From the IMG/VR virus record IMGVR_UViG_3300008625_000009: a stretch of DNA of 64,000 nt. One strand, written 5' to 3'. A model generated the notes under the pieces. It was not told the origin of the DNA, searched no databases, and saw only the letters and a program-made list of their open reading frames with translations. The position numbers were made by a program, and so were the translations under genes. This DNA is from an uncultured virus (IMG/VR IMGVR_UViG_3300008625_000009). Lineage: Duplodnaviria; Heunggongvirae; Uroviricota; Caudoviricetes. The stretch's first letter is position 1. Each line of letters starts with the position of its first letter. Positions 2,423 through 36,827 of the stretch are shown here, one piece after another.

Positions 2423-5400
2423 TTAATATGCCTTTGGAATAGTTAACGGCCCTTCTTTTAAGAATTTTACTTGTTGTGTGGTTGCCATTCCCAACCCTAA
2501 TCCATTTGTTGCTGTGCTTGTTCCTTGGTCATACCATACCTTTGTATGTGAGTCTGACCCGCCCGGAACAATTTGTTGCTTACTGCTATCTACTACTTCT
2601 GTACCTGACGCATGTGTAGTAACAACACCTGTGCCCCATGTACCTCTGCGAATTCTTTTTAGTTTGTTGCTATCAATTTCCCAATACTCAATACGTTCAC
2701 CACCAATGAATATAACACCTGGTATGCCATCACTTGGATTAGGCGTTAATAATTTAGAAGCGTCTGTTACATGAATTTCTAAATCAGTATATTCAAGTGT
2801 ATCAGCAAGCGTAGTAATATTGTCTGTTGCAATTCTATAATAAGCAATTTGGTCGAACATATCTTTCCAAATTCTAAATCCAATGCTTTGTTCTTGTTCT
2901 GCTTCAGCACCGCGCATAGTCGATACTGTAATTTTATCTGTCGCTAGAATTACTCCAGTGCGAGGAGTCATAACTAAATAACCATCATCTGTAATATAAT
3001 AATCATGGTTAGCAATCTGATAAACGCCATTTAACCATACCCAAGCATAGTTGGTATTATATTCTTCTTGTAATAATCTAATATCATAAACCGGCGTAGC
3101 AATGCTAACACTTACATCGCCTGCGTATCCGGAAGTATCATAAATTATAGCGTCAAATCTTTCTAATGAAGTAGATGTTGCTATTGACGAACCTTCAATA
3201 GTTATGGTTTTCCCTTGGCTATACGTTTGGTTAGCAAATGATTGTACAAACACCTTGTCTCCATTAACTGCACCGGCATCCGTTGACAATCCACTACCAT
3301 TTTCTAATATAACCTGTTGATTGTTTGCAATCCAATATTTTCCGTTTCTAACTGTAATGGCAACTTCTGCACCATCTGCAGGAGCCGTTACGAATGTTAC
3401 TTCTGCGCGAGAAGGGGTTCCTGTAAACGTATAATCTGATGTGAGTGTTTTTAATTCACCAGCAACATGCACTTGTATATCTGCATCTGTGGCTGAAGCA
3501 TAATTAACCGTTGGATTAGTTGGACTTGCATATACTGTTGTTGTGCCATCACCGGTGTAGTATTCTGTATCGGGCGGAATTAAACGTGTGCCATTTAGAT
3601 AAACAAATGCTTTGGCCATATCTGGGCCCTGTTCCTCAAATAAACTCGGATAAGTAATAGTATAATCACTTGGCCATGATGGTGAGCCTGGCAATGAAAG
3701 TGTAAATTCCTCCGAGTCAATTCTAATATATGGAGATGGTACAGCAATTTTATCATCATATACTTGCGCGGTTGCTGTTGCTGTGACTCCTGAAGCAGGA
3801 GGAGCAATAGTAACTGTTGGTGCTGTCGTATATCCTGTTCCTAAGTTTGTAATAATAAAGCCTTCTACTTCGCCATTATCATTAACTATAGCATCGGCGG
3901 CCGCGTTTGATCCTACTCCCGTAATAGTCACAGTTGGTGGACTTGCTTTACTATATCCTGATCCTGGGTTAACCAATGTTAATCCAGACATATTAAACGT
4001 ATGCACTCTTATTCTACTATTAGCGCCGGGCGCGGATGAAAATGTAACTTTTGTCTTTTTGTAATAACTAGATGCTGTATATGTAGCATCCCCACCGTTG
4101 ACTGTTACATACAAATTTTGTGCATATTGATAAGGAATATTAACAATAAATTGAGTTGTTGACCCGTCACCTGTAAAGTCTTGTTTAAAGGCGCTAATAT
4201 TTTCGCCACCTGTTTCAACAAGAACAACGTGTACTAATTGCCCCGGGTTTGCAGGAGTGTTCAAGTTAACTGTGTTTATCTCATAATTTAATGTAAAATC
4301 AGTACCACGTATTTTTAAAACATTATCAATATACACTTCTGCACCATAGTCTGTTGTAGGCAATCCACCTACACTACTGAAATCATAACTAGTAGTTGAA
4401 CCGTTACCATAGTAAGTATATTTTTTAACCGTTACTCCCGAATTCCTAGGTGAAGGCATTTCATATACTTTCATATCTAATGTATCAAACATTCTGCCAG
4501 GAATCTGTTCTTCCGGAGCGTGTGATGTATATACGGTTACAAAGCCATCGCCATCTACTACAACATTAGCAGGATCAATACCTCCTGATGTACTAAAATC
4601 ACCACCACTTAAATCAGTGTCGACACTTGCTATAACTCTAATACCTTCTTCTGTTACAGCATAATCATCAAAAGCGTTTTTAGCATACGCCGCTCTGTCA
4701 TAACCGGGTTCTAAACTAAATTCTGCACCTAACACTTTATTTGCTTTGTATTCTAAACCAGATTCTGAAATAATTGATTCATAATTGGGCAAATCTATTA
4801 ATTCATTTTTCCAATTCTTATTACTATTTGTGCCTGTTTGCCCGCCTGCATAATAAAGAGTTAATCTATCACTATGTTTTTTACTTGTTAATTCATGATC
4901 AGGCTCTAATCTATTATAAGATGAATACGTAACTGTTGCTGTTGCTGTAGCACTACTACCACCTCCTCCACTAATAACAACGGTAGGAGCCGTTTGATAT
5001 CCTTTACCCTGCTCAGTTACTGTAATACTTGTTACTGCTCCCCCTGAGATGGATGCTATAGCCTGTGCTCCGTTACCCCCCAATCCTGTGTTTATTGCTG
5101 ATGCATGTGCCTTTTTTGTTGGATTAGGATCTGCAGGACTATTTTTAATAAATTGTACAAATGGTTTATTAATATATCCACTGCCTTGTTCTGTTATAGT
5201 AACAGAAGCAATTGAACCATCTACATCTAGTGTTAATGATGCGGTTGCTTGTGTACCATTTAACTCATCTGGCGCAGAAATAAGCACTTTTGGCGCTACT
5301 GTATATCCTAAACCTTTTTCAGTTATCGTGATAGTATCAACGACGCCGGCCAATGATATATTTGGTATAGAAGTATACCCGGAACCACCGTCAGTTACTG

Positions 5401-22640: not shown

Positions 22641-25600
22641 TTAGAATCCGCCACCACCGCCGGTAGTCGTAGATTCTTTTTCTGAAATAATATCTAATAA
22701 GTAGCCAGTTTTTTTCCAACTTGGTACATTATTTCCATATTTATTGTGTATAACCTCATTTTTTTCACTTGCTGAGTTTCCGCGTTCCCAGGCGTGTGCC
22801 AATTGTGTGCCGCTTAGTACGGCGGCTGCGGCCGCAACACCTGCTCTAATAATTCTACCAGCCGGATGTAACGATGCAACGGCAAGAACCCCTGCTCCGG
22901 CGGCAAGGCCTGCATTAATGATTGTTTGTCTTTCTACACCCATTATTGTATCATTGTTTGCTACAGTAGTTTGATCCGATGTTTCATATGTACTAATATT
23001 AGGATGTCTATCTAATGCCACTGTTCCTACGGGATTTCCTTGAGGAGTCGGTAATACCGTGCCACCAGTGGTGGTCACAAAGGACGGCGATGATCTATAT
23101 TGTTCAACCGGTCCGCCAGCACTAAAGGATGGCGATGATCTATATGGTTCAGCAGGTGAACTATTACTAAATGTGACAGGGCCAGAGGCATCTGCGGGAT
23201 TAGGTCTAATTGGTGTTAATTCACTACCAGTAGTAGACAATTCTGATGCAAGTGTTCCTGATGATTGTGCTATGCTGGGAGATCCAAATCTACTTGCTTC
23301 AGATGCTCTAAATTCTGCCGCGGTTTGCGGCCTATTTTGTAACGCCGCTGTATTAAAATCTGCGTGGGGATTTACAAAGTTTTTGCTAGAACTTGTTTCT
23401 GTAACTGGAAATGGGCCTTCAATTCCCGCAAATTCATTGTTTACTTCTATTGCTTCTGCAGTTAATTGCCTATTCTTCATTTCTTCTTTTACTGTCAATG
23501 GAGTTCCTGCAAACTCATCTGCATCCATTGGTGTCGGTGCTACTCCAGTGCCGCCAAATGCATCTAAGCCTACGGCGGCTTCATTAGCAACTTCTGCAGA
23601 ACCAGGTGTTATTAACTGATTAGCAGCTGCTTTAGCATCTTCAAAATCATAATTGTTTGCTTCATCATTAGACATTAATTCTGTATTCTTTTCAGGATTA
23701 TCAATATTTTCACGCCATTGATTATAAATTCTTGTTGCTTCAATAGTTTGTGTAAATTCTCCACCTTGGAAAACACTGTTAACCTCCCATACTCTATAAT
23801 AACCAGATAACGTACTACCGCCGGCACTGCTACTAAAGTCTGCTAATCCGGTCGCTTCATCATAATCTCTAGGTGTTTTGAATAACAAATAAAAATGTGC
23901 ATCATCTAAGTCACATAATATTGCACCATTCTTTGGATCATGGCCGTTTGTACCGCCTCCTGCTCCAGTTTTATTAGGAGTTGCCATTGACAATACACCA
24001 TCCTGTTGAATATATCCCGGATCCCCTACTATTTCCATAGTTACCGACATCATGTCCGATCCTGGTGTTCTATATAAGTTTTCCATTAAGGTTGCGCCGG
24101 TTCTTTGTTTACTTGTTGCGTGTGGATCTTGAATAAACTTTTTAGACTTCGGTTTAATGTTTTGGCCACCTGCTACTTTTGATTGTTGGTCTTGCCTATT
24201 CCCCGCATCTGGTGCAACATTCGACTCCTCCTCTGGTATTATAGCCTGATCAGCGGATGCATTGCCTGTTGCAACCCCTGCCATAGCTAATATAAAAGAA
24301 TTATTAAAGGTTAAATCTAAATTTCTAATATCTAAATTTTGGCCACTGTAAATATAATCATAACTTCTTGCAACATTGCGTACTCCATTTTGTCCTGGCT
24401 TAGCCTTGCCTCCGGTGACTTCTGGATCTACTACCTTATAGGGATCAATTTGTATAAGGGTGTGTCTAGCATATTTGTTACGTATGTTATCGAATTCTTT
24501 TAATATTTTAACATATGTAATCTTAAACCAATCTAATCCTTTGTTGGGATCCTTTAAAACTTCTTTTGCTTCAGATACTTTTCCTAATGGTTTATTATCT
24601 GCAAGTTGGTCGGTAATATATGTACTATCACGTATTACTTTTTCTACTAATGATAGCATAGATTGTCCTGGGGCAGATATTTCTATTTTATAATCCGATC
24701 TTTCACCATAATATCGTAACGCAGAATCGTTCTTAAATTTTTCTTTTGGAGGCGTTTGCCTTCCCCTCTCGCCACGTGCGACTGTTTCATGACCGCTTGG
24801 AACCACTTTAAGTAACGTCTGCTTTGCTACATTAGGAGATATTTTTGCAGATTTTAATCTGTTAGCGGCCGGGCCGCCTCCTGTTCCTATTCTAAATTCT
24901 ATACTGTCAGCAAACTCCTGTGTTTTAGGAGCCCAAGTTCCTGCTTCATTTGGTTTTATTCCTGCGGTAAAACTGCCGGTAGTTCTATCTGTTTGTTCTC
25001 TATTAAACTCTTTTTCTAGATGTTTAAAAATATCTTGAATTTGTTTTCCTTTTATTGTTTTTAAATTAAGACTTTGTGTTATCGGATTATTATCTGCTTC
25101 CAAAACCGCCATCATAATAAATTCAAGTGAATAATTTGTGCCTTCTGCAGTAATATTAAAATCTAAATTTGCTATTCTAACAGGAATCCAACGTGTAGCA
25201 GGTTTTATACGTACATTTTTGCCTTCCTCATCATAACCTAAAAAATCAATCTGAACTAACAACGGCTTTTCTGTCCAATTCCCTCCATCTTCAGTTAACA
25301 CTTCATGAAATCTATCTAACAGTGTGGTTCCGGTTGGTTCAACTACAGCCATACTTAGATCCATAAGGTTAGTTGCTCTAGAATTAGAGTTCATACCCAT
25401 TAATCCAGAAGTTGTCATTGATTCAATGTAAAAATCTAATTCAAACTTAGGATGCCTTGCCGGCAGAATTTCTGAACCATCATTAAGTATACCACCTGAG
25501 GAAAATAATGTATAGCATATTTTAGGTATATTTGCATGTGCCCAGTCCCAACTGCCTTTCTCTGCTAAATCATTATAATTCTGCACAGTTTTGAAACTTA

Positions 25601-25706
25601 ATAAACTTATTTTATAAGTGTAGTTTGTAAACTGGTGTAAAATATTGTCAGGTGCTGGTACAGGTTTATCTGCTACAACTTGTAGATTAGGATCACCATT
25701 TGTCAT
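22641..25706 (-). CDS. Baseplate hub protein (gp27-like) with long low-complexity C-terminal extension
   Basis: Lies between gp53-like and gp5; MEIVGDPGYI and SGYYRV..V.S.F.GG.FTQ motifs typical of hub proteins. Confidence 0.5.
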   Translation of the reverse strand: MTNGDPNLQVVADKPVPAPDNILHQFTNYTYKISLLSFKTVQNYNDLAEKGSWDWAHANIPKICYTLFSSGGILNDGSEILPARHPKFELDFYIESMTTSGLMGMNSNSRATNLMDLSMAVVEPTGTTLLDRFHEVLTEDGGNWTEKPLLVQIDFLGYDEEGKNVRIKPATRWIPVRIANLDFNITAEGTNYSLEFIMMAVLEADNNPITQSLNLKTIKGKQIQDIFKHLEKEFNREQTDRTTGSFTAGIKPNEAGTWAPKTQEFADSIEFRIGTGGGPAANRLKSAKISPNVAKQTLLKVVPSGHETVARGERGRQTPPKEKFKNDSALRYYGERSDYKIEISAPGQSMLSLVEKVIRDSTYITDQLADNKPLGKVSEAKEVLKDPNKGLDWFKITYVKILKEFDNIRNKYARHTLIQIDPYKVVDPEVTGGKAKPGQNGVRNVARSYDYIYSGQNLDIRNLDLTFNNSFILAMAGVATGNASADQAIIPEEESNVAPDAGNRQDQQSKVAGGQNIKPKSKKFIQDPHATSKQRTGATLMENLYRTPGSDMMSVTMEIVGDPGYIQQDGVLSMATPNKTGAGGGTNGHDPKNGAILCDLDDAHFYLLFKTPRDYDEATGLADFSSSAGGSTLSGYYRVWEVNSVFQGGEFTQTIEATRIYNQWRENIDNPEKNTELMSNDEANNYDFEDAKAAANQLITPGSAEVANEAAVGLDAFGGTGVAPTPMDADEFAGTPLTVKEEMKNRQLTAEAIEVNNEFAGIEGPFPVTETSSSKNFVNPHADFNTAALQNRPQTAAEFRASEASRFGSPSIAQSSGTLASELSTTGSELTPIRPNPADASGPVTFSNSSPAEPYRSSPSFSAGGPVEQYRSSPSFVTTTGGTVLPTPQGNPVGTVALDRHPNISTYETSDQTTVANNDTIMGVERQTIINAGLAAGAGVLAVASLHPAGRIIRAGVAAAAAVLSGTQLAHAWERGNSASEKNEVIHNKYGNNVPSWKKTGYLLDIISEKESTTTGGGGGF
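23079..23151. repeat. 28-bp near-identical direct repeat (period 45 bp) encoding YRSSPSF twice
   Basis: 23079..23106 vs 23124..23151, two mismatches. Confidence 0.8.
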
Positions 25707-30605: not shown

Positions 30606-31139
30606 ATGCCTAGCAAGCAGAAAATAAAAGGCTCCACGTGGGAGCGCGATGTTGCTAAACATTTAACCGAAATATACGGCGAAACGTTTATTCGTGTTCC
30701 GCACAGTGGTTCCTATATTGGGGGGTCTAATAAAGCGAGAAAGGAATATCTTCATGAAGGACAAATAAGATCTTTCAAGGGAGATATAGTACCAGGTCCA
30801 AGTTTCCCTTTACTTAATATTGAGTGTAAGGCATACGGCGACTTTCCATTCCATCATTTATTTTCACAGGATGTGAATAAGTTAGATCAATGGATAGAGC
30901 AATTATTAGAACCTGCAGACGAAAACGACTTTAACATACTAATAATAAAAATCAATAGAAAAGGCAAATACGTAGCAATTGAAAACAAATACCCACCATT
31001 TAAATTTGACAGGCACATTAATTACAAAGGTTGGATTTTTTGCGACTATGATATGTTTTGGAGCAAAAATGCTGACCGTGTTAAAACATTCTCAAGTAAC
31101 CCAACCACATATAAATCAAGACTATCATCTAAAAATTAA
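30606..31139 (+). CDS. Holliday junction resolvase-like PD-(D/E)xK nuclease
   Basis: KGSTWER..A..L, GDI and IECK catalytic motifs. Confidence 0.7.
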   Translation: MPSKQKIKGSTWERDVAKHLTEIYGETFIRVPHSGSYIGGSNKARKEYLHEGQIRSFKGDIVPGPSFPLLNIECKAYGDFPFHHLFSQDVNKLDQWIEQLLEPADENDFNILIIKINRKGKYVAIENKYPPFKFDRHINYKGWIFCDYDMFWSKNADRVKTFSSNPTTYKSRLSSKN

Positions 31140-31159
31140 AGGCAACACACAGGCACACA

Positions 31160-31575
31160 TAATATCCACAATGCGGCTAAGACCCGCTCTCCTTGACGGT
31201 GTAGCAAAGGCACATTGAGATTCCGGAGATGATACAAACCACTATAGCATGGGCTAAAAAGACGAGGGTAAGAACCTCGCGTCTATTATTTGTTGAAACT
31301 GTAGCATTTAGTAGATACCGTTTGTTGGCGTGATAGCCAGGAGACTGTGGTAGGGAGTACAGGACAACCGCTTCCACGTCGTTAGATAATCCACAACAGT
31401 TTATAGGACAAGACCGAAGGAAAAAGTCAAATCCACACTTCACCCAGTCGGGTGGAGTGTGAGCAAAACTTCAGGAAAAAATTAAATAAAAATAACAATG
31501 TTAAATATAAAAAAGACTTTTCAAATTATACCTAGTTCGAGCGAAAGCGAAGAACTAGATGAACGTAGTTCATCT
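31160..31575 (+). ncRNA. Putative large structured non-coding element (ncRNA and/or replication origin)
   Basis: Gap of ~430 nt with no credible ORF; many stems (31173-31187, 31261-31283, 31296-31302/31396-31402, 31343-31380, 31434-31461, 31532-31575). Confidence 0.6.
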
Positions 31576-31579
31576 CATA

Positions 31580-32266
31580 ATGCAAATAAAAATATCAACT
31601 TACTTCGGTAAACAAGAAACTCGTGATGTAATAATAAACAATATATTCCTTGATAATGTCGAGCTATGGGAGGAGAGTCAGGCGTTACAAGACGGATTTT
31701 CTCTTTATATTGAAAATGGAAAAGAGCATTGGTTCATGTCACGTAATACTCGAATCTGTCTAGAAAAAACCAATTATAATTCGATAGATTTAGAATGGAA
31801 AATTGTCGATAAAAAACCGAAAGTAATTAAAAAAATTCTAAACGCATATCTGCAAAGAAATAATTATAAAGATTTATATTCTATAGACGAGGACTGTGAT
31901 CGATTCAAATATATTCTTTATAAAGATAACGGAAAAATAGTTGCTATTACAAAGTTACTCAATTACAGTAATGATGTAGAAACACATTTCTTTATTTGGA
32001 ATTACCATAATCCTGATTTACATTTAGGTACTATTAGTTTAGAGCATGAAATATGGTGGGCAAAACATAACGGATACAAGTATCTATACACTGGCCCGGG
32101 ATATGAACAGAGCAGTATTTACAAATCCCAATTTCCTGGATTCGAATGGTGGACTGGTATGGAATGGAGCGACGATGTTGAAATGTATATTAAGTTATGT
32201 AAACGCGACAGTAAAATAAGAAGTTTTAAGGCGTTAACTTCTTTAGATCCTCAGGAACTTCCTTAA
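31580..32266 (+). CDS. Aminoacyl-tRNA-protein transferase-like protein (ATE1/Bpt family)
   Basis: SRNTRI N-region and C-terminal LGTISLEHEIWWAK..GYKYLYTG..Y....YK..F pattern of the ATE/Bpt C-domain; ATG 31580 preferred because ATG 31559 lies inside hairpins. Confidence 0.6.
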   Translation: MQIKISTYFGKQETRDVIINNIFLDNVELWEESQALQDGFSLYIENGKEHWFMSRNTRICLEKTNYNSIDLEWKIVDKKPKVIKKILNAYLQRNNYKDLYSIDEDCDRFKYILYKDNGKIVAITKLLNYSNDVETHFFIWNYHNPDLHLGTISLEHEIWWAKHNGYKYLYTGPGYEQSSIYKSQFPGFEWWTGMEWSDDVEMYIKLCKRDSKIRSFKALTSLDPQELP

Positions 32267-32359
32267 AACGCCAAAGCGTAACCCACTCTAAGTAATCTGC
32301 GAATGCTTGTCAGAGAGCGCAATTTTATTACTCGGAATAAGTGTATAAAATGGGTTCAT
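32226..32359 (-). pseudogene. Internally deleted paralogue of the DUF1415-like gene
   Basis: ATG 32359 ORF MNPFYTLIPSNKIALSDKHS.. runs out of frame into DYLEWVTLWRFKEVPEDLKKLTP*, which matches the C-terminus EYLEWVTLWRFDEVPEEFKK of 32492..33061 (46/60 nt identical, most changes at third positions). Confidence 0.7.
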
Positions 32360-32376
32360 AGTTTTATATCTGCCTC

Positions 32377-32416
32377 ATAAATAGTTAAAACTATTTATAA
32401 TGATATAAATAGTTTT
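32377..32416. promoter_or_regulatory. Divergent late promoters within overlapping inverted repeats
   Basis: TATAAATA on minus (32392..32399) and plus (32404..32411); ATAAATAGTT/AACTATTTAT and AAAACTATTTATA/TATAAATAGTTTT dyads. Confidence 0.65.
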
Positions 32417-32491
32417 ATATAACCTTTTCGGACGGCAGGTTATTTCAAAAGAAAGTCCAAATTTCGTTTAACAAATGAAAGGAGGATTATT

Positions 32492-33061
32492 ATGAACGAA
32501 ACCGATTGGACCCCGGCAGAAGCCGTAGAAAAAATAGAAGAACTAAAACATTGGATTAGAACTTTTATTGTCAAAGAATTTCCCGAGTTAGATAACTTAC
32601 CAGTATGTCCATATGCACCCCCTGCATTGGAAAATGACACAGTACGAATAAAAGTAGTCAATGACAATCTTTTAGAAAAATTAAAAGAATATGTTGACAA
32701 CTGGACAGATCGTGATGACCGTGGTAATGTTGAAGTATTAGCGGTTATAACACCCACTGACAGGTATACGGTTGAAGAATATCAAGACATTTCAGAAAAA
32801 ATTAATGAATATGCAAATCCATTAAATTTAGCGATACTTGATGACCATCCGGGACATATAGAACAAATTGGTGATTTAATGTTTAATTTTGGCAAATCTG
32901 CATTAGTGTTAATGGCACGATTAGATGTATTAAATAACGCATCAGTGCAATTGGCAAAAAATACAAACTATTATAAAAATTGGCCTAAAGAATATTTAGA
33001 ATGGGTTACACTTTGGCGATTTGATGAAGTTCCAGAAGAATTTAAAAAATATGTCGAGTAA
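32492..33061 (+). CDS. DUF1415-like protein
   Basis: W..TFIV....L.NLPVCPYA and DHP motifs resemble DUF1415 (CPFA, FHP); strong GGAGG RBS. Confidence 0.5.
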   Translation: MNETDWTPAEAVEKIEELKHWIRTFIVKEFPELDNLPVCPYAPPALENDTVRIKVVNDNLLEKLKEYVDNWTDRDDRGNVEVLAVITPTDRYTVEEYQDISEKINEYANPLNLAILDDHPGHIEQIGDLMFNFGKSALVLMARLDVLNNASVQLAKNTNYYKNWPKEYLEWVTLWRFDEVPEEFKKYVE

Positions 33062-34514: not shown

Positions 34515-36827
34515 ATGGCAGACGACGACGCAATTTTACGAGAAACCAAACGATCTATAGATGCGCTATTTAGAAGTGTCTCTGACTCTGCGGATCGTGC
34601 GTCTACAGAGTTAAATTACATTTCGCGAGTTGCGAGGGTTTCTGGAAAACAAATATCCTATGCTGGTGATAGTGCAGAGGCATTTGGAGAAGCATTAAAC
34701 GGATTGACCAAATCTCTCGGCGGTGCCGCTGTAGAAATAACCAAGGCCGGCATGACCTTTTCCGCAAGCGCCGGAGCAATGGTCATTGCGATGGGCAATA
34801 TAGATAAAATTGTTAAAGATGGAAAACTAACTAAGCCAGATTCAGATGGAGATGACAAAGATAAGGATGACGATCAAGGTGGTATTATGTCTGCGATCGC
34901 GGGAGTCTTTAAGTCGATTCTTGCCAAGGTTCCTTTTATGGCCGCCGGCGCTGGGTTGGGCGGTACCGCGGGAGCTAGATTCGGCAGCGCCGGTGCGATG
35001 GTAGGTTCTGTTGTGGGCGGCGCCGGCGGCGCGGCGCTCGGAATTGCTGAAGAAGTGTACGGCGGATATTTAGATGGACTAAACGAGATAACCACAGCAG
35101 GTATACCTTTTGGTAGAAGTCTAGAAACGTATGCGAAGGCCATCACAACAACAACTTTGACACAAACAGAATTTAATGCTTTAATGAAAAGAAATTCTGA
35201 AACATTGTCTATGTTTGGAGGAACAGCACAACTAGGTGCTGAAAGATTAGTTACTTTAGGTGGCGTACTTTCAGACGTTGGCCGACGTCATACAACATCC
35301 GGAATGTCGTTTAGACGCACAATAGAATTGATGGGTATGGATGTAGAAGATGCATTAGAGTTATCGGCAACCATGCTGAATAATGCTTCTCTGGCTGATA
35401 GCACTCGTTCGTTATCTGCTCAAGAGCAAGCAGATATGACCGGTGATTATATATACCAATTATCACAGTTAGAAGTACTCACTGGTAAGAGTAAAGATCG
35501 GCTAGCGAAAGAACAACAAAAATTGGCATCTGACGCGCAATTCCAGGCGGCTATTATGAACATGGGCCCAGAACAACAGGCTGCAATGACAGACGGGCTC
35601 AAGAAGGCAATGGAAACAGGCGGCCCGGCGGCCGCTGAGATCTTTAAAGCCAGAGTTGCAGGTGTTGTTCCGAAAGGTAAAGAGGCTAGAATGATGATGG
35701 CTACTCCGATGGGACAAATGTATAACGATCTAGCCTCAGATATGTTATCTGCTGGTGATGGCGCCGGCGAGATTTTTAACGCAAGTCTAGGCAAATTAGA
35801 AGACGCCATAGAAAAAACAAGAGATACTTTTGCTCCTTTAGCCGCGGCTGGCCAACCGATCGGGTTAGCATTGTTCGAAGCTGCACAGGCAACCACTACA
35901 AAATTTAATGCAATTCAAGACGCATATGCCAAACATGCCGGGATAGTTGATACAGAATCAGTAAACTTTTCGACAGCATTTGAACATTTTTATGATCAAG
36001 CAATGGGTATTGACGCAGAAATTGTCGACGGGAAACTCGTAGGAACGATTGGTGATGCAGCTACCCAACTAACAACTGATATCAGAGTTCTGAAAGACGA
36101 GATAGCAGTTGGCGCCAGGGAATTGTTTTTGGATACTATCTTTAACGCTGATGATGGACTGATCAATTGGGTCCAGGGACAATTAAAAACCTATAAAGAA
36201 AAAACGGGGTTTGATGAAGAACTTTCAGCTGAGATAATAAAACTACAAGACGAAGGACTTGTATCTTACAGAACTATTCCAAGAATGGCAGGTACATTAG
36301 GTGACAAAATTACAGGTTTTATGAAAACATCTATAGATCTAATTCAAGAACAGTATGACACAATGCATGAAATGTTTGGCGGGACTGGAGATCGCGTCGA
36401 CATAAGGAAGGATGTGCTGGGTGGTACTTCGGAAGCAAAACCTACAGCAGTAGTAAAACCAAATACTCCACCACCTGGTACACCAGTAGCAAAACCAAAA
36501 GTAGCAACATCAAGTGCAGATGCGCGCCATGCAGGACTTTCCACAAAGATATCAGCCTTGGCCGAGGCAGGCATAGCACAAACAGGTGAATCTGCTACTG
36601 GGGCAACTGAAGCATCTAAAAGCTTGTCAGATACCGCTAATGAAAACTTACAAGAAGTGAAAAAGCAAACTCAACAATTGGATAAACTCGTTGATCTTAC
36701 TGAAAAACAATTGCAAGCACAGAAAAATAATCAGGTTAATGTTAATATTGATAATGGAAACAAGAACGCAAGATCTCCGCACGGATTAGCAAATGAAGCA
36801 GGGCAAGATGGGACGACATACGGGTAG
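34515..36827 (+). CDS. Tape-measure-like protein
   Basis: 770 aa, helical, A/G/M-rich, glycine-zipper hydrophobic segment; next to the gp26 chaperone. Confidence 0.55.
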   Translation: MADDDAILRETKRSIDALFRSVSDSADRASTELNYISRVARVSGKQISYAGDSAEAFGEALNGLTKSLGGAAVEITKAGMTFSASAGAMVIAMGNIDKIVKDGKLTKPDSDGDDKDKDDDQGGIMSAIAGVFKSILAKVPFMAAGAGLGGTAGARFGSAGAMVGSVVGGAGGAALGIAEEVYGGYLDGLNEITTAGIPFGRSLETYAKAITTTTLTQTEFNALMKRNSETLSMFGGTAQLGAERLVTLGGVLSDVGRRHTTSGMSFRRTIELMGMDVEDALELSATMLNNASLADSTRSLSAQEQADMTGDYIYQLSQLEVLTGKSKDRLAKEQQKLASDAQFQAAIMNMGPEQQAAMTDGLKKAMETGGPAAAEIFKARVAGVVPKGKEARMMMATPMGQMYNDLASDMLSAGDGAGEIFNASLGKLEDAIEKTRDTFAPLAAAGQPIGLALFEAAQATTTKFNAIQDAYAKHAGIVDTESVNFSTAFEHFYDQAMGIDAEIVDGKLVGTIGDAATQLTTDIRVLKDEIAVGARELFLDTIFNADDGLINWVQGQLKTYKEKTGFDEELSAEIIKLQDEGLVSYRTIPRMAGTLGDKITGFMKTSIDLIQEQYDTMHEMFGGTGDRVDIRKDVLGGTSEAKPTAVVKPNTPPPGTPVAKPKVATSSADARHAGLSTKISALAEAGIAQTGESATGATEASKSLSDTANENLQEVKKQTQQLDKLVDLTEKQLQAQKNNQVNVNIDNGNKNARSPHGLANEAGQDGTTYG

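Follow-up and report, generated by a model that had tools for sequence, protein, structure and literature searches.

An uncultivated phage encodes a large structured non-coding RNA in a gene present in a single copy. The gene lies in the region 31140–31480 of the window (the whole 64,000-nucleotide stretch of phage DNA analysed here), between a PDDEXK_15 gene and an ATE_C-like gene. The RNA is about 310 nt long up to the second of two twin-loop hairpins, or about 410 nt if both hairpins lying further downstream are included. Its core is an almost invariant three-way junction locked by two pseudoknots. Judging from comparisons between contigs, the RNA is conserved in uncultivated aquatic giant phages. 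Of this RNA, earlier catalogues contain no more than a short part of a sister form.

The locus and its coding capacity

The source record (124,451 bases, completeness estimated at 35%) contains the element once, and its length at this completeness implies the genome of a giant phage. The phage is T4-related. Its nearest cultured relatives by portal and PDDEXK proteins are PA5oct, Phosso, Atu_ph07 and SCTP-2 (~50–55% amino acid identity). The window also contains a second catalogued orphan motif, the Rfam freshwater-2 RNA (RF02980, 42688–42775 on the + strand, 66.7 bits for a gathering score of 49.9), and two long structural-looking ORFs with Gly/Ala/Thr-rich low-complexity stretches (22641–25706 on the − strand, 1021 aa; 34515–36827 on the + strand, 770 aa).

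A reading of the sequence alone, made before this analysis (hereafter the sequence-only reading), had described the element as less AT-rich than the adjacent tract, and the GC content is indeed 0.43–0.49 over 31100–31474 versus ~0.27–0.37 in both flanks. It had also found no credible ORF there. The minus strand of the RNA region holds a 97-codon open stretch in the window, and the only sizeable open frames at the RNA are one of 88 aa on the minus strand and one of 79 aa that overlaps the end of the upstream gene. These local ORFs matched no Pfam family and their frames are not retained in relatives: no ORF over the RNA is conserved in five relatives, where the longest have 53–81 codons in shifting frames. 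For the + strand, the folding energy is −95.9 kcal/mol (z −2.37 against shuffles), whereas the − strand folds no better than shuffled sequence (z −0.12). The region that had been proposed, 31160..31475, was the right one, but the element extends further: its second twin-loop hairpin ends at 31483, and two more conserved hairpins occupy 31532–31575 (Table 1).

In many lineages, AGGCA boxes (2–4 copies) and then a CATAG/TATAG-like element precede the RNA, as read from alignments. The box pair was rejected as a general promoter motif of the window (3 matches versus 1.06 expected). In locus L017, a CGCAAC-containing direct repeat (3535–3580) lies upstream of the RNA in place of the AGGCA boxes. 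Such lineage-specific short direct repeats just upstream of the RNA may be dedicated promoter or regulator sites.

Table 1. Features of the RNA gene and its surroundings in the window
Feature	Position	Strand	Support or remark
Hc1 (histone H1-like) protein gene, 59 aa	30423-30602	+	Pfam E 1.5e-11
PDDEXK_15 endonuclease/resolvase-like gene (context, not part of the RNA)	30606..31139	+	Pfam E 1.1e-27
RNA-library contig X16	30727-31402		bridges PDDEXK gene and RNA
RNA-library contig X18	31166-31402		
RNA-library contig X17	31178-31402		
RNA-library contig X9	31250-31403		
Two AGGCA boxes, candidate promoter/regulator sites	31140..31155	+	inferred from alignments
5' domain, four or five hairpins, lineage-variable form	31166..31283	+	
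h1, GCGG/CCGC	31173-76/31184-87	+	covariation
h3, UCUCC/GGAGA, encloses h4	31188-92/31225-29	+	covariation by eye
h4, CGGUGU/ACAUUG, loop AGCAAAGGC	31197-202/31212-17	+	covariation
Variable hairpin, CCA/UGG	31239-41/31250-52	+	
h6, GAGG/CCUC, outer GAC/GUC	31264-67/31275-78	+	covariation by eye
Hairpin Pd, strands ~31284-94 and ~31303-13, loop GAAACUGU 31295-302	31284..31315	+	covariation
Pseudoknot 2, Pd loop AAACUGU 31296-302 with ACAGUUU 31396-402	31296..31402	+	covariation by script
Pseudoknot 1, G/U-rich strand in 31320-28 with (G)ACAAC 31363-68 in H1 loop	31320..31368	+	covariation
Clade-specific inserted hairpin, UGGC/GCCA	31326-29/31336-39	+	covariation
Three-way junction: Pb, H1, H2	31346..31395	+	covariation
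Pb, UGUGG/CCACA, closes the three-way junction	31346-50/31391-95	+	covariation
H1, GGGAG/CUUCC (family GGGRG/CYUCC)	31353-57/31371-75	+	covariation
H2, short, variable	31378-80/31385-87	+	
Twin-loop hairpin W1, GAC/GUC, loop CGAAGGAAAAA, word AGGAAAAA 31418-25	31412..31428	+	
H3, 12 bp in window (one U-G), loop AGUC, then UGAG (UGAC in most lineages)	31434..31461	+	covariation
Twin-loop hairpin W2, AACUU/AAAUU, loop CAGGAAA, word AGGAAAAA 31473-80	31467..31483	+	
HpA, CUAGUUC/GAACUAG around GAGCGAAAGCGAA	31532-58	+	conserved
HpB, AGAUGAA/UUCAUCU around CGUAG, directly after HpA	31557-75	+	conserved
ATE_C-like ORF, as listed	31559-32266	+	listed start inside hairpin HpB

Homologues in uncultivated phages

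Relatives were first reached through the two flanking proteins in viral contigs. The element is 85% identical in nucleotides to that of loci L005/L008, against 74% and 50% for the flanking proteins there, and shows ~69% DNA identity in a further clade. Searching with an exact pattern of 18–20 bases from the best-conserved core block brought in 21 loci from viral contigs and 63 from metagenomes. The core was modelled as R1 (a covariance model with 124 positions, 23 base pairs and 22 seed sequences), which gave 84 matches among 98 sources (viral and metagenome contigs), with 53 distinct core sequences. Of these matches, 80 come from the 84 loci selected by the pattern; the others are the window and L017, L018 and L019, three loci that had been fetched via a neighbouring protein only. 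The match of the window (31279–31414, 80.1 bits, E 1.3e-16) arises by construction, since the window is among the seed sequences; non-seed members score 27.6–119 bits. The invariance of the core motif is also partly by construction because homologues were gathered with an exact core pattern, and variation within the pattern motif is visible only in L017–L019, which were found independently of it.

Four loci from the metagenome pattern scan (L067, L072, L108 and L109) have no R1 match and were taken as chance rather than as family members, as were two pattern matches in 596 Gb of prokaryote genomes (best R1 11.7 bits, E 2.1). In cultured PA5oct, SCTP-2 and Phosso, no R1 match was found near the PDDEXK_15 homologue, and blastn of the element against 50,697 phage records gave no match. 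Five PDDEXK loci (L014–L016, L020 and L021) score below 14 bits with R1, filters off, and may carry a still more divergent form of the RNA. No description of the larger RNA was found in the literature searched, and the core motif has no occurrence in those supplementary files of a 2023 survey of viral structured RNAs (PMC10690425) that were searched.

Covariation and the coding strand of the RNA

Covariation in relatives, which the sequence-only reading had named as one way to check its RNA candidate, is strong. In the model-based alignment, 83.9% of cells are paired versus 64.2% after shuffling (none of 500 shuffles reaches the observed value, in a control that ignores sequence kinship) and 41–50% when the strands are slid. 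Both sides have changed in 30 of the 36 pairs and the covariation score is 0.496 versus 0.166; a plain MAFFT alignment gives the same picture. The conserved U-G pairs of Pd and H3 identify + as the RNA strand.

A core locked by two pseudoknots

Hairpin Pd, which opens the core, is 82.4% paired and all its ten pairs change on both sides. It includes a near-invariant U-G pair (48 of 53 sequences) that is possible on the + strand only. The loop of Pd forms pseudoknot 2 with a strand ~95 nt downstream. A run of 6 or more contiguous pairs is present in 44 of 52 distinct sequences compared with 21% of cross-lineage pairings, and no fewer than 15 different pairs of complementary sequences occur. Most failures are sequences whose alignment is truncated by long H2 insertions. 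The AAACUGU/ACAGUUU helix had been noticed before as a long-range stem; its pairing is supported, but it is a pseudoknot with the loop of a 10–13-bp hairpin and not plain nesting.

The register of pseudoknot 1 is ambiguous in the window; across the family, its G/U-rich strand pairs with NNCAAC within the H1 loop. It is 88.8–92.6% paired. The two positions left free in the search pattern show covariation (AU, GC, UA, UG, CG), and L017 has a double compensatory change. A hairpin previously read as AGG-ACAA-CC has to be abandoned, as its ACAAC pairs upstream instead to form this pseudoknot. The UGGC/GCCA hairpin (31326–39) is retained as UGAC/GUCA in relatives.

Within the three-way junction, the joining bases GUA, UACAG, CG and AAU are invariant. 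All four pairs of Pb change on both sides (94.7% paired). H1, already recognized from the window alone, is 99.6% paired, and its fourth pair alternates between GC and AU (31 versus 22). Covariation supports most of the stems in the earlier picture of nested stems, but with two pseudoknots the fold is not simply nested.

The 5' domain and Polynucleobacter-1

In the window clade, 94.2% of the cells of h1 and h4 are paired versus 79.5% after shuffling and 12–54% when slid, and 5 of the 10 pairs have changed on both sides. Covariation of h3 and h6 was read by eye (the MAFFT alignments are mis-registered there): in the L033 lineage, h3 becomes UCGCC/GGCGA and h6 becomes GUGG/CCAC. Two of the helices first proposed for this domain are kept by compensatory changes in relatives, namely GCGG/CCGC (GCAG/CUGC and GUAG/CUAC) and GAGG/CCUC within GACGAGG...CCUCGCGUC (GUGG/CCAC). 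Two others, CAAUG/CAUUG and CCUU/AAGG, are not kept, and UCUCC/GGAGA and CGGUGU/ACAUUG are found instead.

The region 31000–31700 of the window has no match to the 141-nt Rfam motif Polynucleobacter-1 (RF01718), either at E up to 10 or at the gathering score (37 bits). Sister lineages do carry it. In L018, RF01718 (93.5 bits, 2149–2288) is followed 45 nt later by the R1 core (2333–2450, divergent, E 0.0016) and then by W1, H3, W2, HpA and HpB. It scores 38.5 bits in L112 and 38.4 bits in L098, in which R1 gives 61.9 and 65.9 bits, respectively, and 32.8 bits, below gathering, in L088. The motif occupies the slot of the 5' domain, at the same place after the PDDEXK_15 gene (Pfam in L098 and L112; a PDDEXK homologue found by tblastn in L018). 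The window RNA is a homologue of these RF01718-bearing RNAs, with which it shares the core, the twin-loop tail, HpA/HpB and the gene neighbourhood. Because RF01718 is followed by core and tail in the sister lineages, it is a fragment of a larger RNA and the 5' domain of a sister form of the window RNA.

There are also differences. The 5' domains of the window and of most lineages have no RF01718 match; the motif spans about a quarter of the RNA, of which core and tail belong to no Rfam 15 family; and the window-family RNA sits in phage contigs, with more RNA beyond the motif. Weinberg et al. 2010 (PMC2864571) list Polynucleobacter-1 in a table only, for Burkholderiales and for fresh water/estuary, with the rating probably cis-regulatory. 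Three viral loci retrieved with a pattern from the RF01718 region carry neither RF01718 nor R1. The novelty claimed at first has to be qualified: the window is without an Rfam match, but in sister lineages the 5' domain is RF01718.

A tail with twin loops

W1 and W2 display the same 7–10-nt word in each lineage and the words differ between lineages: AGGAAAAA in the window, and AGAUGAU, AAUCAAG, ACAGAAA, GUCGAAAG, GUGGAAU and others elsewhere. In 45 of 51 own W1/W2 pairs, the two loops share a string of 7 nt or more, versus 12% of cross-lineage pairs and 14% of shuffles. In the close pair L073/L093, an identical GAU to GCU change has occurred in both loops. The stem of W2 has one C-A mismatch in the window and is perfect in L063 and L032. 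Among 30 lineages, no complement to the twin words lies at a consistent place within −330 to +420 nt, and neither the words nor their complements are enriched in the phage records searched; TCTAGATGA occurs once in the record of L040, as W2 itself, and AGGAAAAAG is not enriched in G000.

H3, the sequence-conserved hairpin between W1 and W2, was counted by script because the MAFFT alignments of the tail are mis-registered. Among 32 sequences its 8-bp stem takes 20 distinct forms, none with fewer than 7 of the 8 pairs, and there are central compensatory changes and U-G pairs possible on the + strand only; the 12-bp stem proposed at 31434-45/31450-61 is hence supported by covariation. Between W2 and HpA/HpB lie 20–130 variable bases. 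The HpA loop motif, GAGCGAWAGCGAA, occurs once in the 64-kb window, and its pattern was matched by script in 38 of 49 tails; the stems differ by lineage yet are complementary where read (most). HpA/HpB possibly mark the end of the transcription unit.

Gene neighbourhood

Further upstream of the RNA lie gp47-like and gp46-like recombination nuclease genes and the small Hc1-like gene. The latter is found in some lineages only (54 loci, mostly of the window and L033 clades). Its product is 96.6% identical to that of L032, where the PDDEXK and ATE-like proteins are 74% and 50% identical, respectively.

According to Pfam, the slot just upstream of the RNA is occupied by PDDEXK_15 in 13 of 30 family loci, by a SegE-type GIY-YIG endonuclease in 8 (for example L044 1806–2258, L054 212–646 and L082 1766–2191) and by other genes in 9; the unrelated upstream genes include radical SAM, methyltransferase and glycosyltransferase genes. 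The alternation of two endonuclease families beside a conserved RNA gene would be that of mobile endonuclease genes homing near a conserved target. Of 35 loci, 29 have an upstream ORF in the same direction as the RNA, ending within tens of bases of it, and four (L036, L069, L080 and L102) have a divergent one. The next downstream ORF is convergent in 21 of 35, and same-strand downstream ORFs belong to varied families. In three relatives (L069, L080 and L102), both neighbours lie on the strand opposite to the RNA, which is therefore a gene of its own.

Pfam ATE_C occurs near the RNA in 3 of 30 family loci (L032, L033 and L112, on the opposite strand in L112). Comparison with L033 and L035 suggests that the true start of the ATE_C-like ORF of the window is the in-frame ATG at 31580, directly after HpB.

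RNA-library contigs

Four metatranscriptome runs from four studies provide assembled contigs that map to the element and together cover 31166–31403; these are low-depth assemblies that may include DNA. Since X16 runs on from the PDDEXK gene into the RNA, co-transcription with the upstream gene is possible. The Hc1-like gene has the top contig depth of the region in one RNA run (X16, 15–22). No contig of the four RNA runs lies on 31415–32600, an absence from which no conclusion is drawn. All four contigs end at ~31403–31414, before the twin loops. The tail could be a separate unit or could be removed by cleavage; a stable species made of 5' domain and core is hinted at only weakly, because the contig ends coincide with a strain-variable stretch. 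The proposal of a phage ncRNA, first made from the letters of the window, is upheld by conservation, covariation, + strand G-U pairs, the opposite-strand neighbours in three relatives and these contigs.

Comparison with known RNA classes

The sequence-only reading had asked what Infernal and Rfam would make of the element: no Rfam 15 family matches that of the window at gathering score or at E up to 10, and Rfam searches at gathering and permissive thresholds over the window and 41 loci yielded no family for this element. Matches to mir-460 and a snoRNA (E 1.4 and 5) are noise. The element had been said to be neither a tRNA nor a recognisable intron. Accordingly, ARAGORN found no tRNA or tmRNA gene in the 64-kb window and there is no match to Rfam Intron_gpI. 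A group I intron is rejected on the lack of an Rfam match in the window and the 41 loci and on flanking genes that vary and often lie on the opposite strand. A riboswitch or 5' leader is rejected on the convergent downstream ORFs and the varied same-strand families. GOLLD, ROOL, HEARO, OLE, raiA, RNase P and 6S have no Rfam match at gathering score in the window, and none at E up to 1–10 around the element in the window or relatives.

Large RNAs with intricate conserved tertiary architecture are rare, and those that have been solved are usually ribozymes or ribonucleoprotein cores. The window-family RNA resembles tmRNA, RNase P RNA and group I introns in size class and multiple pseudoknots, but has no ARAGORN or Rfam match, no flanking exons and varying neighbours; unlike group I introns, its pseudoknot topology has no P8-like hairpin inside H1. 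Lambdoid nut (boxA-boxB) sites, found in two operons, exert their effect in cis on RNA polymerase, and the loops of phi29-type packaging RNA are complementary to each other. Both systems would be analogous to the window RNA in having two lineage-specific hairpin loops that change in concert beside a conserved element, whereas the two loops of the window RNA are identical and not complementary as in packaging RNA. Like ROOL and GOLLD, as these are presented in a preprint (bioRxiv 10.1101/2024.12.08.627333), the RNA is large, complex-folded, phage-linked and found by comparative genomics, but it has no sequence or structure match to them in Rfam and is smaller.

Possible functions

An invariant pseudoknotted core combined with twin loops that are identical yet free to change suggests that the RNA is an adaptor or scaffold. 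The best explanation overall, held with middling confidence, is a structured ncRNA gene whose product would act in trans in this way. The role itself, with the parts assigned below to core and twin loops, is possible rather than probable. The invariant core would bind a partner common to the phages or their hosts, or would carry a catalytic or ligand pocket, and would also shield the 3' side. Each twin loop would recognise one copy of a lineage-specific partner; given how freely the words change, this partner is likelier to be a nucleic acid than a protein. The RNA would have its own promoter at the AGGCA boxes and would terminate at HpA/HpB. A narrower version, which we consider improbable, is a programmable phage RNA in which the core would be an effector (catalytic or docking) and the two 7–10-nt loops would guide it to a two-copy lineage-specific nucleic-acid target.

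The same core might instead be the catalytic centre of a ribozyme, for example one processing itself at the two similar units (RUGAC, then a hairpin with the same word) that flank H3, which would free the H3 segment and leave a 3' end near 31403–31414. Size, nested pseudoknots and invariant unpaired bases recall large catalytic RNAs, and the RNA-library contigs of four runs end just before the first unit, a weak hint. On the other hand, no Rfam 15 ribozyme family matched, no product of cleavage was seen, and the contigs end at a strain-variable stretch, where assemblies break anyway. A ribozyme is thus unlikely.

Two hairpins with identical lineage-specific loops, each after a conserved linear element, could also bind two copies or a dimer of a phage-specific protein, so that the RNA would serve as a decoy, as a scaffold for assembly or as an antitermination-type element. 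In lambdoid phages, the paired nut boxB hairpins, which match their own N proteins, would be the analogy. No nucleic-acid complement to the twin words was found, and a very conserved small basic Hc1-like gene lies two genes upstream in several lineages. However, words that differ so radically by lineage are easier to reconcile with base pairing than with protein recognition, the Hc1-like gene is restricted to some lineages and no candidate protein covaries. We do not expect this protein-binding role to be the right one, but give it some weight.

The co-directional upstream ORF that ends so close to the RNA, and contig X16, would suit a 3' untranslated element of the endonuclease mRNA, either a stabiliser or regulator or the homing target of the endonuclease; the alternation of PDDEXK_15 and SegE GIY-YIG genes in the upstream slot is as expected for homing beside a target. 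This is quite doubtful, as the RNA persists with unrelated upstream genes or with opposite-strand ones (L036, L069, L080 and L102) and shows stronger conservation than the endonuclease gene.

The ATE_C-like ORF directly follows the RNA in the window clade, with its probable start after HpB, and Polynucleobacter-1 was rated probably cis-regulatory in the 2010 table. A cis-regulatory leader or riboswitch of this gene, or an RNA substrate or partner of its enzyme, is nevertheless very unlikely. The gene contexts largely refute it: ATE_C is near the RNA in so few loci, the downstream gene is so often convergent, and RF01718 in L018, L098 and L112 precedes the rest of the RNA and not a gene. The RNA partner of an aminoacyl-tRNA-protein transferase-like gene that the sequence-only reading had imagined is unlikely for the same counts.

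The position after recombination genes, the short direct repeats 52–59 bp apart in most lineages and the repeated boxes upstream might indicate an element acting as DNA (a replication origin, iteron-like sites bound by a protein, or a recombination or packaging signal), but this has hardly any probability left, given compensatory changes that keep pairing, including the pseudoknots, G-U pairs whose opposite-strand equivalents would be A-C, and the strand specificity of the fold. A replication-primer role has no support, its sole pointer being the position after the gp47/gp46-like genes.

Significance for giant phages

A 141-nt orphan Rfam motif, rated as probably cis-regulatory in the table of 2010, becomes the 5' end of an RNA of ~500–550 nt in L018, and being part of a larger RNA changes the way in which the motif should be studied. 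If the programmable reading were true, a programmable RNA would be found among the few large complex-folded classes since ROOL and GOLLD, and Polynucleobacter-1 would be explained. The twin loops, with their concerted lineage-specific words, offer a concrete experimental handle on function. Finally, a core that is near-unchanged across giant-phage lineages whose proteins are only ~50% identical implies that these phages depend on the RNA.
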